Made by a program: the position numbers and the translations under genes
Virus record (IMG/VR): IMGVR_UViG_3300020419_000859
Direction: 5' to 3' (one strand)
Source of the DNA: a virus
Length of the DNA stretch: 64,000 nt
In this document: one piece after another, positions 848-38,568 of the stretch
Numbering within the stretch: the first letter of the stretch is position 1
Layout of the letters: each line of letters starts with the position of its first letter
Notes under the pieces: generated by a model
What the model was told of the DNA's origin: nothing
Databases searched by the model: none
What the model saw: the letters and a program-made list of their open reading frames with translations, nothing else

Positions 848-1491
848 TTTGTTTATATTGGGGAAATAAGTATAGTATTGATTATGTAAATAAACTATAC
901 AGTATGGTAAAAAGGAACCTTTCTGTACCACATCAATTTATTTGCTACACGAACCACCCTTCACTAACTTTTTCCGAAGGAATTATCACAAAAGGTTTAC
1001 CATTTGACCAATACGAAGGCTGGTTTAATAAACTTACATTGTTTAGTAATGAAGCCGACCTTAAAGGTAATAATCTTTACCTAGACCTAGACGTAGTAAT
1101 ACTAGAAAACTTGGACGAGTTGGCAACGTTTGGCAGTGCCAATACCTTTGGTATCATCAACGATTTTAAACCTAGTAATGTGTACAATTCAAGTGTAATG
1201 AAATTCAACAATATCACAGCTGGCCATATATGGACATCATTTAAGAACGATGAAAATAATATGTTGAGAAATCATGGTGACCAAGAAATCATTAGCCATT
1301 TTATGAAAGACTCACCACATTTGAAGATTATACCAGACGAGTGGACTTTTTCATATAAGTGGTCTGATAGAAAACAACCTAGGATATACAATCCTAATTA
1401 CGAGAGAATGCCTGGTAAGATTGCAGTATTTCATGGTAACCCTAATCCACACGAATCAAGAGAAAAATATATCATTGATAACTGGAAATAG
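829..1491 (+). CDS. GT-A fold (GT8-like) glycosyltransferase
   Basis: CLYWGNKY, WFNKL, LYLDLDVVI (DxD), NSSVM, HGDQ and FHGNPNP motifs. Confidence 0.75.
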   Translation: MELVNVVCLYWGNKYSIDYVNKLYSMVKRNLSVPHQFICYTNHPSLTFSEGIITKGLPFDQYEGWFNKLTLFSNEADLKGNNLYLDLDVVILENLDELATFGSANTFGIINDFKPSNVYNSSVMKFNNITAGHIWTSFKNDENNMLRNHGDQEIISHFMKDSPHLKIIPDEWTFSYKWSDRKQPRIYNPNYERMPGKIAVFHGNPNPHESREKYIIDNWK

Positions 1492-1505
1492 AACAAAACC
1501 AGAAC
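1491..1505 (+). promoter_or_regulatory. alphaproteobacterial LexA (SOS) box GAAC-N7-GAAC
   Basis: GAACAAAACCAGAAC lies 42 bp upstream of the -35 at 1548. Confidence 0.65.
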
Positions 1506-1547
1506 AAATACGTCAAAAAATTAAGTAAAATCAACGAAAAATAACGC

Positions 1548-1575
1548 TTGCTTTCTAGGCCAGGTCTGATAGGAT
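1548..1575 (+). promoter_or_regulatory. sigma70-type early promoter
   Basis: TTGCTT-N16-TAGGAT with extended TG; same hexamers as the promoter at 38341-38369. Confidence 0.6.
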
Positions 1576-1629
1576 AATGATATGAAAACAAAAAAGATAT
1601 TAAAAATAACAACTTATACAAATAACTTG

Positions 1630-1658
1630 TTGCCAAATACATCTTTTTGTGATAGGAT
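1630..1658 (+). promoter_or_regulatory. sigma70-type early promoter
   Basis: TTGCCA-N17-TAGGAT, upstream of the strong SD (AAAGGAG) of 1689. Confidence 0.7.
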
Positions 1659-1688
1659 TTATAATATAAACAAAAAAGGAGATACACT

Positions 1689-1892
1689 ATGTCAAAAGTA
1701 AAACAATGGGCTGAAAACACAGCAGAGGAAAAAGTAGATAAGATTATCTTAAACTACAAAAACAACTTAATCAATAAAGATACTGCTGTCAAAGAAATTA
1801 TGGAAGTTGATAATTTAGATTTGATTGGTATTGATGAACACAATGTTGAAGAATGCATTGAAGATACATTTTACGATAAGGTTGAAGCCTAA
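1689..1892 (+). CDS. hypothetical early protein
   Basis: ORF with AGGAG SD; TAATG coupling to the next gene. Confidence 0.7.
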   Translation: MSKVKQWAENTAEEKVDKIILNYKNNLINKDTAVKEIMEVDNLDLIGIDEHNVEECIEDTFYDKVEA

Positions 1893-2299
1893 TGAATAAA
1901 AGTAAAACATTTAATATAGTTTACGGTAGAGAATACCAAGATTCAGATGAGAGATATGATGAATTTTTTTACATCTATAATACAGTATTCAGAAACGTAG
2001 ATATGAAACACCTTAAAACTGCCAATAGTTTTAAAGAAAAAATTAGAAAGTATTGTGATAAGAATTTTAATGAGACAGCTAGTAATTTTATAGGAAATAC
2101 TACAGTTAAAATTATACATGGTGATGACTATTATACAACTTACGAAGATGTATTTGGTACAGAGACCGTTGGAACTGATAACTCATTATTTAATGATTAT
2201 GGTCAATTGTGGAATGGTAGACAATTCTTTAAAAAAGATTATAATCCAAAACTAACAGAAAAGTATACGTACAAAAATTTAAATAGAGAGGCAAGCTAA
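1892..2299 (+). CDS. hypothetical early protein
   Basis: Translationally coupled ORF. Confidence 0.7.
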   Translation: MNKSKTFNIVYGREYQDSDERYDEFFYIYNTVFRNVDMKHLKTANSFKEKIRKYCDKNFNETASNFIGNTTVKIIHGDDYYTTYEDVFGTETVGTDNSLFNDYGQLWNGRQFFKKDYNPKLTEKYTYKNLNREAS

Positions 2300-2592
2300 T
2301 GAAATACGGTGAAGATTTGATTTGTGATGAGATAAAAGAATATATTAAAAGTACATATGGTCAACACTACAGTACAACGGAAGACGGTTTCCAGGTGCAA
2401 GATATGTTGAGACAATTAGGAATTGATAAAGATTTTTGCCAAGCTAATGCCATTAAGTATCTTTGCAGATATGGTAAAAAAGACGGTAAAAACAGAAAAG
2501 ATTTATTGAAAGCTATTCATTATATAGTTTTATTGATGAGTAGTGAAGATAAAAATACAATAACTATAGACGAAAATTATAAAGGAGGATAA
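2299..2592 (+). CDS. DUF3310 / SaV-like protein
   Basis: YGQHY...FCQANAIKYLCRYGKKDG...DLLKAIHY signature. Confidence 0.85.
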   Translation: MKYGEDLICDEIKEYIKSTYGQHYSTTEDGFQVQDMLRQLGIDKDFCQANAIKYLCRYGKKDGKNRKDLLKAIHYIVLLMSSEDKNTITIDENYKGG

Positions 2593-36478: not shown

Positions 36479-37420
36479 ATGAGAATATTAAGTATTATAT
36501 TAATGTGTTTGATGACAACTATATCATATGCAAGAGATCAAATTAACATAGTCGGTAGTTCTACCGTTTATCCTTTTTCAACAGTAGTAGCAGAAAGATT
36601 TGGTAAGTCAGGTAAGTTTAAAACACCTGTAATTGAATCAACTGGTACTGGTGGTGGAATGAAACTATTTTGTAAAGGCATTGGTGTAAATACACCTGAT
36701 ATGTCAAATGCAAGTAGAAAAATAAAAGCAAAAGAAATCAAACTTTGTAAAGACAATGGTGTCACTGAAATTACCGAAGTAATGGTAGGTTTAGATGGTA
36801 TTGCTTTTACAAGTTCAGTAAAAGGCAAATTATATAACTTTACAAAAGAACATCTTTGGAAAGCAATGGCTGATTTAGGTCCAAAACCTGAAAAATGGTC
36901 AGACATTGATCCTTCTTTACCAGATTTTAAAATAGCAATTTTAACACCACCAGCAACAAGTGGTACAAGAGACGCTTGGAATAGTTTAGTAATGAAAAAA
37001 GGATGTCCAGAAAGTATCTTAAAAGAACAAGGTAAAAAAGCTTGTTATATGTTAAGAGAAGACGGACCTGTAATTGAAGTTGGCGAAAACGATACTTTGA
37101 TTATCAATAAGTTAGTAGGTGAACCACAATACTTTGGTATTTTTGGTTTTAGTTATTATGATAATTCAAAAGACAAAGTTCAAGCACATACAATTGAGGG
37201 TGTTAAAATAAGTTTAAAAGCAATACAAGATGGTTCTTATCCAATAAGTAGACCATTATACTTTTATGTAAAAGATCAACACATTGGTGTTATACCAGGA
37301 GTTGAGGAATATGTAAAAGAGTTTACTTCTAAAAGAGCTGCAGGTAAGAGAGGTTACCTTTTAGATTTAGGACTAGTGCCTTTAGAAAACTTAAAAGAAG
37401 CTATTTCTAAAATAGATTAA
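36479..37420 (+). CDS. pstS: phosphate ABC transporter substrate-binding protein
   Basis: ARDQI.IVGSSTVYPF…ESTGTGGG.KLFC.G…NASR…SGTRD…YP.SRPLYFY (alphaproteobacterial-type). Confidence 0.93.
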   Translation: MRILSIILMCLMTTISYARDQINIVGSSTVYPFSTVVAERFGKSGKFKTPVIESTGTGGGMKLFCKGIGVNTPDMSNASRKIKAKEIKLCKDNGVTEITEVMVGLDGIAFTSSVKGKLYNFTKEHLWKAMADLGPKPEKWSDIDPSLPDFKIAILTPPATSGTRDAWNSLVMKKGCPESILKEQGKKACYMLREDGPVIEVGENDTLIINKLVGEPQYFGIFGFSYYDNSKDKVQAHTIEGVKISLKAIQDGSYPISRPLYFYVKDQHIGVIPGVEEYVKEFTSKRAAGKRGYLLDLGLVPLENLKEAISKID

Positions 37421-37758
37421 CTATATCTGAAATAGTTGTTATTAGTATTTCTGTAATAGATAGCAAAAGTATCAGCGCCGTCCATATGACAGAAAGATTG
37501 AGGTCTTTGATAATAATTTGTTTTACCAGTTGTCATGTTCTTTTTCATACCTGACTTACCTCTGTATCTGTATCTAATCTTCTTTGCATTTTTACTAGCA
37601 GATACTTCTTTAAAATATTTTAAATATTTAATAGGTATATCATATGCTATACAAGAGCCTTGATGTTTGAAAGGATCCACCATATATTTTAATATTACTT
37701 TATTGACAATCCTTTCAAAAACTTTTCTTCGTCTGTCTTTTTTTAAACTCATATTCAT
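37417..37758 (-). CDS. basic hypothetical early protein
   Basis: AGGAG SD before MNMSLKK; RYRYRG motif. Confidence 0.6.
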   Translation of the reverse strand: MNMSLKKDRRRKVFERIVNKVILKYMVDPFKHQGSCIAYDIPIKYLKYFKEVSASKNAKKIRYRYRGKSGMKKNMTTGKTNYYQRPQSFCHMDGADTFAIYYRNTNNNYFRYS

Positions 37759-37766
37759 ATTTTCTC

Positions 37767-38123
37767 CTATTTTAAGTATAATGGACCAGTCCAATTAATT
37801 GCATAATTACCAGATAATACATTACCTCTTGCTTGATTAAGAGCAGGAGCTTGCCAACCAGCAGGTTTTAATATATCACCCATTTTAAATCTACCGAAGT
37901 CAATCATAGAAATAAAAGCTTTTACACCACCGTTGTTTACAACTTTAATAAACTTTTTACCAGTTTTGATAGAAAAACCAGTGGCATATTCTTTACACAT
38001 TTTTTCTCTAACTTCGTTATTATCACTAGCGCCAAAGTTCTTTGTATAGTCTTCAACCATAGCGTTAGTCATATTCATTATTCCTTCTTTTAAAGTTTCT
38101 GCTTTAACGTTTACTGTAATCAT
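37767..38123 (-). CDS. conserved phage early protein
   Basis: G.K.IK…..V.AF…GDILKPA.W.APA.N.ARGN..W.GP.Y motif. Confidence 0.7.
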   Translation of the reverse strand: MITVNVKAETLKEGIMNMTNAMVEDYTKNFGASDNNEVREKMCKEYATGFSIKTGKKFIKVVNNGGVKAFISMIDFGRFKMGDILKPAGWQAPALNQARGNVLSGNYAINWTGPLYLK

Positions 38124-38305
38124 TATTTGTCCTCCTTGTATAATTCTTGAGCATATAAAGCTAAAATGTATGACGCAATACCTATCAAGGCCATTGAAGC
38201 ACCTTGTAAATATTTGTCTATTTCAATTGATCCTACGGCACCAACCATTGCTAAAGTACCGACTGTTGCCATTATTACTGACATGTATTCTATTATTTTT
38301 TTCAT
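38123..38305 (-). CDS. small membrane protein
   Basis: Start reassigned to MKKIIEY; two TMs. Confidence 0.6.
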   Translation of the reverse strand: MKKIIEYMSVIMATVGTLAMVGAVGSIEIDKYLQGASMALIGIASYILALYAQELYKEDK

Positions 38306-38340
38306 AGTGTATCCTTTGTTGTTTTTCATATTACTCGTCC

Positions 38341-38369
38341 ATCCTATAACATAAATACACTAAAAGCAA
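38341..38369 (-). promoter_or_regulatory. sigma70-type early promoter
   Basis: Minus strand TTGCTT-N17-TAGGAT. Confidence 0.7.
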
Positions 38370-38376
38370 GCAAAAA

Positions 38377-38568
38377 ATGAAAAAAAATACAAAAAAATTT
38401 GCATTTTTTCTTGTCTGTTCTCTTTTTGTTCTCGTTTCCTGCTCAAAAACTGTTAAGGATTGCAAAATTGAGCCGGATTATGAAAAAATTGGCGAATCAG
38501 CGTTAGAAAATAAAGAAAATTTAAGTGAAACTGAGCTAAAATCTGCTCAAATGTCATGTAAATTTTAA
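38377..38568 (+). CDS. small lipoprotein
   Basis: Lipobox LVSC; three Cys in the mature part. Confidence 0.55.
   Translation: MKKNTKKFAFFLVCSLFVLVSCSKTVKDCKIEPDYEKIGESALENKENLSETELKSAQMSCKF
38417..38431 (-). promoter_or_regulatory. alphaproteobacterial LexA (SOS) box
   Basis: GTTCTCTTTTTGTTC, 47 bp upstream of the minus-strand -35; overlaps a signal-peptide coding region. Confidence 0.55.

Follow-up and report, generated by a model that had tools for sequence, protein, structure and literature searches.

The viral DNA analyzed here, IMG/VR record IMGVR_UViG_3300020419_000859 (64,000 nucleotides, referred to as the window), carries exactly three matches to the direct repeat GTTC-N7-GTTC, the form of the alphaproteobacterial SOS box (PMC8565304). 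An initial annotation had described these repeats as operators of LexA, the SOS repressor, lying 13–47 bp upstream of the −35 elements of sigma70-type promoters. Their coordinates (Table 1) and the gaps of 42, 13, and 47 bp are confirmed, and none of the three boxes overlaps its core promoter. The evidence set out below makes it very likely that the sites are operators for the LexA protein of the phage's own SAR11 host, kept by selection in the pelagimyophages, the T4-like group to which the window belongs. Box 1 begins at the stop codon of a glycosyltransferase gene (829–1491), box 2 takes in the end of the gp59 gene, and box 3 lies among signal-peptide codons, so coding constraint had to be excluded as the source of the motif.

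Table 1. Features of the box 1 (1491–3464), box 2 (18221–20053), and box 3 (37417–38568) loci of the window, and examples of the palindrome found beside boxes in relatives. ORF, open reading frame; SD, Shine-Dalgarno sequence; IHF, integration host factor.
Feature	Position	Strand	Remarks
LexA-type box 1	1491–1505	+	GAAC orientation along transcription; −35 42 bp downstream
A-tract and ATCAA element, IHF-site-like	1515–1542	+	Between box 1 and −35; read from sequence
Predicted sigma70-type promoter linked to box 1	1548–1575	+	−35 1548–1553; 16-bp spacer; extended −10 1570–1575
Second predicted sigma70-type promoter	1630–1658	+	No box of its own; directly 5′ of SD-led gene at 1689
Six small early-type ORFs, one block	1689–3464	+	2299–2592 matches phrog_480 (unknown function)
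gp59 helicase loader	18221–18826	+	phrog_269; first half of box 2 made up of its final codons and stop
LexA-type box 2	18818–18832	+	GTTC orientation along transcription; −35 13 bp downstream
Predicted sigma70-type promoter of serine hydrolase gene	18846–18874	+	
Beta-lactamase-fold serine hydrolase	18902–20053	+	Signal-peptide-like N terminus; PF00144 E 9e-6, just below cut-off
Minus-strand island, three ORFs	37417–38329	−	Functions unknown; 37767–38123 matches phrog_5014
Predicted sigma70-type promoter of minus-strand island	38341–38369	−	−35 38369–38364; −10 38346–38341
Divergent 63-residue lipoprotein-like ORF	38377–38568	+	Box 3 inside its signal-peptide codons
LexA-type box 3	38417–38431	−	GAAC orientation along minus-strand transcription; −35 47 bp downstream
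Palindrome examples	HTVC008M 87259, 133406 (L160/L161); Mosig 13971 (L131); L729–L808		

The number of boxes in the window is what chance would provide, whereas their placement beside promoters is not. Shuffled versions of the window hold 1.24 ± 1.16 matches, with three or more in 15 of 100 shuffles, and the window taken by itself shows no excess of spacer 7. Count enrichment, considered for the window and for whole phage genomes, was rejected as not significant. All three boxes nevertheless lie within 60 bp upstream of a sigma70-like promoter (p ~9e-5), as judged against a loose list of 48 such promoters that covers 4.5% of start positions. A stricter promoter cut-off loses the site 3 promoter and leaves two of three boxes linked (p = 0.003), the thresholds for this comparison having been picked after the fact. 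The annotation's estimate of about one chance match per 64 kb, with location as the signal, is borne out by these figures. The window has about a dozen intergenic sigma70 promoters, of which only three carry a box.

Among cultured phages, Mosig of Pelagibacter is the nearest relative (72% nucleotide identity over 78% of 36.4–41.6 kb; 58% for gp59), followed by HTVC008M and Melnitz. These relationships, together with synteny, place the window in the pelagimyophage (Mosig/HTVC008M) group, and similarity to Mosig suggests a SAR11 host. Conservation beside promoters in relatives, which the annotation had named as a check on its proposal, is found at all three sites. At site 3 the exact box, with a variable spacer, is present in 23 of the 25 loci that have the upstream region, and also in Mosig; the two loci that lack it are distant and not syntenic. 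Depending on lineage, the first G of this box is the first, second, or third base of a lipoprotein codon, so the protein sequence does not explain the box. At site 2 every one of 24 gp59 loci has the box, 3 or 13–14 bp from the −35 element and with the serine hydrolase 3′ of it in all 24 relatives; the non-coding half of the box is invariant and the adjoining bases diverge. Site 1 is less uniform: in 47 of 72 loci an exact box lies upstream of the homologue at a distance of no more than 800 bp.

Signal-peptide codon bias at site 3 was considered separately and rejected, since the box occurs in three frames and a period of 11 bp is not that of codons. More generally, the sites could lack a function, reflecting chance, such codon bias, or the relic of shuffled promoter cassettes. 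The unremarkable count in the window would fit this, as would the location of site 3 in V/L/F/C-rich codons and of half of site 2 in gp59. Against it stand the exact half-sites kept while the spacer varies across three reading frames, the invariant non-coding half of site 2 beside a diverging flank, and the 42 unrelated gene families found downstream of boxes. The peptidase promoter, which in Mosig and HTVC008M lies upstream of the replication genes, also speaks against it: the box occurs there in 24 of 60 distinct upstream regions and in 0 of 578 in-gene control windows, and is thus real but optional. The conservation tests already contradict an absence of function, which we regard as extremely improbable.

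Boxes recur across the group. The four exact boxes of Mosig each lie upstream of a promoter-like sequence, and HTVC008M has eight boxes, four of them clear. In a complete relative of 177 kb, three boxes precede early-type promoters, and a fourth precedes a further −35 element by 18 bp. In both Mosig and HTVC008M a boxed promoter heads a same-strand run of peptidase, CobS, gp45, gp44, regA, and gp43. Within IMG/VR, a spacer-7 box followed by a −35 element was found in 116 and at least 120 stretches (two gap ranges), as against 15 stretches, mostly without a promoter, for a spacer-8 control (one gap range). Among the matches listed, 228 of 233 box-plus-promoter stretches resemble the window, Mosig, or HTVC008M, so that the pattern is usable as a marker of the pelagimyophage group. 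A promoter-linked box was not found in Melnitz (which infects OM43), phiM12, or P-SSM2. The host of phiM12 is an alphaproteobacterium, so T4-like phages of such hosts do not share the trait in general. The Melnitz promoters showed neither an alpha-type box nor a convincing Escherichia coli-type box, and this phage serves only as a negative control.

The presumed host clade encodes full-length LexA and RecA. In the family examined, whose LexA entries bear the names Candidatus Pelagibacter or Pelagibacteraceae, lexA scores above cut-off in 77 of 81 genomes, in keeping with the annotation's expectation of a lexA-bearing host. A box precedes the gene at all 36 lexA loci and all 14 umuD loci (all exact), and at all 5 recA loci with one variant half. 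These tallies include genomes G050 and G261, although none of the conclusions hinges on either; without G261, which was left out of the scoring matrix, the lexA count is 35 of 35. HTCC1062 has recA, lexA, and umuDC, and infection by HTVC027P induces host SOS genes (PMC12753301). The phage boxes share the direct repeat, spacer, and flanks of the Pelagibacteraceae lexA, recA, and umuD operators, and the commonest host umuD box is identical letter for letter to boxes in HTVC008M and Mosig. Scored on ~128,000 window positions with a matrix built from 13 host sites only, sites 3, 1, and 2 rank first, second, and fourth, at 21.2, 18.7, and 15.2 compared with 13.6–23.5 for host operators. Promoter-linked sites rank top in both cultured phages as well. 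The boxes thus have the alphaproteobacterial LexA operator form that the annotation had assigned to them.

A search for the LexA DNA-binding domain, the only such family looked for, found none in five pelagimyophage genomes. Combined with host lexA and the operator match, this makes host LexA the expected binder. OmpR-family activators typically use phased direct repeats upstream of the promoter, and the sites might instead serve a phage-encoded regulator or a host response regulator of the OmpR/PhoB type, which activates in phase from 11-bp direct repeats; the restriction of the phage search to the LexA family leaves room for this. We consider it improbable, given that the box equals the host SOS operators down to the flanking A's and is missing from the promoters of the three phages named above. 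With such identity, host LexA should bind whether or not another protein does.

The position of the phage boxes sets them apart from those of the host. Pelagibacteraceae operators overlap the region between the predicted −35 element and the start codon (read by eye), while all 58 promoter-near phage boxes, from loci fetched by protein homology only, lie wholly upstream of −35 and none overlaps the core. Their distances span 3–82 bp and fall into clusters at about 41, 52, 62, 71, and 80 bp in the GAAC orientation and at 3, 14, 24, 35, and 45 bp in the GTTC orientation. With one point per downstream gene family and spacing (42 families; the points are not fully independent), a Rayleigh test at a period of 10.5 bp gives p 7e-5 for the forward (n = 50) and p 2e-5 for the reverse (n = 29) series, with ladders such as 41/50.5/61/71/81 and 3/14, and periods of 13 and 14 give no signal in the same test. 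The phase is also held by short-gap boxes that have no intervening site. The two orientations are offset by 6 bp, as would be expected of a protein centered ~3 bp to the 3′ side of the 15-mer and tied to one face of the helix. Window sites 1 and 2 are in phase with their series, and so stand where a class I activation site would, upstream and in helical phase with −35; site 3 does not.

A decoy role makes little use of this arrangement. Replicating phage DNA could titrate LexA and derepress host recA, umuDC, and repair genes, with the promoters as bystanders. Titration is feasible, since hosts hold only 12–14 exact matches per genome, few of them at promoters, and a few phage boxes do lie in long non-coding stretches lacking an obvious promoter. 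Decoys would not need a fixed distance, phase, and orientation offset to −35, and we judge this explanation very improbable. One upstream site held in helical phase matches the architecture of activation or anti-activation and does not match that of occlusion or a decoy.

Some of these promoters may be composite. An IHF-like A-tract/ATCAA element often lies between box and −35. The element of the box 1 locus, also present in many relatives, is a candidate IHF site whose match to consensus is imperfect. An IHF site would be expected to match WATCAANNNNTTR with an A-tract upstream; the consensus is matched perfectly in 9.4% of spacers compared with 0.9% of shuffled ones, and the hosts have three HU/IHF genes. 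The promoters with boxes at 79–82 bp have, in addition, a palindrome 5–7 bp downstream of the box, which persists in promoters without a box (examples in Table 1). We take this palindrome to resemble a RegA/PrrA site, and promoters that contain it may also read the host redox state.

IHF-assisted upstream control is known at lambda pL and Mu Pe, and class I activation from CRP or FIS. The phage promoters resemble these in having a phased upstream site, with an IHF-like site before the core promoter, and differ in that the upstream site is an SOS operator and IHF binding is predicted from its consensus. In the favored reading, a bound LexA dimer would occupy a constant face of the helix upstream of a sigma70 early promoter, whether near the promoter or returned to it by an IHF-type bend. 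Intact LexA would then recruit or stabilize RNA polymerase and boost a subset of early cassettes on entry into a healthy cell, and RecA-driven cleavage of LexA, prompted by ultraviolet (UV) light or by infection itself, would turn the boxed cassettes down. The outcome would be a damage-sensitive dimmer, or a timer for early shut-off, in a phage group from which MotA, AsiA, Alt, and Mod are missing.

Host damage status thus probably tunes the boxed early genes, with activation more likely than the repression usual for LexA; whether intact LexA acts as a phased upstream activator of this subset we regard as evenly balanced. Activation is favored because overlap, the route to repression used by every host operator, is used by no phage box, and because alphaproteobacterial LexA is reported to activate, the precedent being Rhodobacter sphaeroides recA, according to a title cited in PMC6182141. 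Several points weigh against it. The linked promoters are near consensus and may need no activator, and the box is absent from 36 of 60 peptidase promoters despite similar cores. Site 3 of the window, at a gap of 47 bp, is off-phase, and the ten-bp ladders could partly stem from duplication of A/T tracts. The enrichment of IHF-like sites is modest, with at least 8 of 9 consensus positions matched in only 29% of spacers compared with 14% of shuffled ones. The host of the window phage is itself assigned through Mosig. LexA is overwhelmingly a repressor, and anti-activation also predicts phasing. Whichever its sign, the box is a modulator of some cassettes.

In the anti-activation alternative, LexA represses from upstream, and SOS induction by infection or UV frees the cassettes as a substitute "middle" class. 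It could do so by blocking contact of the polymerase alpha-subunit C-terminal domain with a UP-like tract, by hindering an IHF- or RegA-like factor, or by holding polymerase at the promoter. Repression is LexA's usual role, the box lies 5–10 bp from the next element, and the gap-3 and gap-13 boxes cover the UP region. The pelagimyophages lack middle-transcription genes, and because alt, mod, asiA, and motA are absent, according to PMC7029224, upstream repression would supply the missing class; the boxed promoter ahead of the peptidase-to-gp43 run and the SOS induction seen with HTVC027P (PMC12753301) fit this too. On the other side, simple repression through core-promoter overlap is found in every host operator examined and in 0 of 58 phage boxes, and short-gap boxes with no intervening site hold the same phase. 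We regard anti-activation as possible but rather unlikely.

The annotation had further proposed a repressor-type UV switch out of a carrier state, and this is not supported. Most window promoters are without a box, the site 1 block has a second, box-less promoter, and the box is optional at the peptidase promoter, all of which speak against a carrier-state switch; the consistent absence of core overlap, unlike in the host, speaks against the repressor type.

Temperate phages are known to co-opt LexA, and virulent ones CtrA or Spo0A (PMC9437464); what is new here is the geometry. Like coliphage 186 (through tum), CTXphi, SPC32H, and Bacillus phage GIL01 (PMC9437464, PMC6182141), the pelagimyophages place host LexA operators at phage promoters and so would read DNA damage, as judged here from sequence. 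Those phages are temperate, and in them LexA represses antirepressor or lytic promoters, whereas pelagimyophages are T4-like and lytic in culture, have several dispersed cassettes in a non-occlusion geometry, and, in the five genomes searched, show no LexA-type domain of their own. The closer parallel in lifestyle is with the CtrA sites of alphaproteobacterial phages ("lytic deferment") and the Spo0A sites of phi29 (PMC9437464), where a virulent phage reads host state via a host transcription factor at several promoters; there the cues are the cell cycle or sporulation, and both factor and signal differ from those of LexA boxes. The motif is not reported in the searched passages of the pelagimyophage and Melnitz papers, and we found no other report of LexA boxes in these phages in literature outside subscription journals.

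No marine bacterium is more abundant than SAR11, which is exposed to UV every day. According to PMC7029224 and PMC9004378, pelagimyophages are without known early or middle transcription regulators and the timing of their genes is an open matter. The boxes name a host factor and a signal in two cultured phage–host pairs, and the genes downstream of them are mostly of unknown function. If the assignment is correct, LexA co-option extends from temperate to lytic phages, and the box geometry hints that LexA is used in some way that differs from promoter occlusion. We put forward only tentatively the fullest version of the favored reading, in which the host SOS repressor now activates from phased upstream positions, at composite promoters responsive to IHF and a RegA-like factor as well, its cleavage being a timer that replaces the T4 early/middle transcription machinery in a large group of lytic marine T4-like phages.

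Several further features were observed around the boxes. At the box 1 locus a 39-residue ORF (1582–1701) begins just 3′ of the box 1 promoter and overlaps the second promoter, and some relatives have ~230 bp extra in this region. At L267, L278, L382, L394, and L407 a −35-like hexamer was matched on both sides of one box; some of the reverse matches may fall inside an IHF-like element and not be real promoters. In two relatives, the boxes at L816, L817, and L819 precede or fall inside long stretches that look non-coding and may be origin regions or specify non-coding RNA. A fourth conserved box in Pelagibacteraceae (L513, L518, L521), which separates a probable phosphomannomutase gene from an unidentified gene running divergently, marks a candidate additional member of the SAR11 SOS regulon. 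The window also encodes a PstS-like periplasmic binding protein (PF12849; 36479–37420), uninformative as a host clue, with ~50% identity to mixed marine alpha- and gammaproteobacteria and no Pelagibacter match.

A late-type promoter-like word at 38350–38357 drives the lipoprotein-to-baseplate run on the strand opposite the minus-strand island. Box 3 lies ~60 bp downstream of it, and LexA bound there could also be a roadblock; relatives L006 and L007 have three tandem half-sites at this position. Elsewhere in the window, a one-mismatch box at 12482–12498 stands close to the forward phase, 29 bp ahead of the promoter at 12527, and has a matrix score of only 11. The promoter at 9511 (9448–9540) has a RegA-like palindrome and an IHF-like element and no LexA box; seven relatives have a box at the corresponding position, with gaps of 50, 61, or 69 bp, and it looks to have been lost in the window phage.

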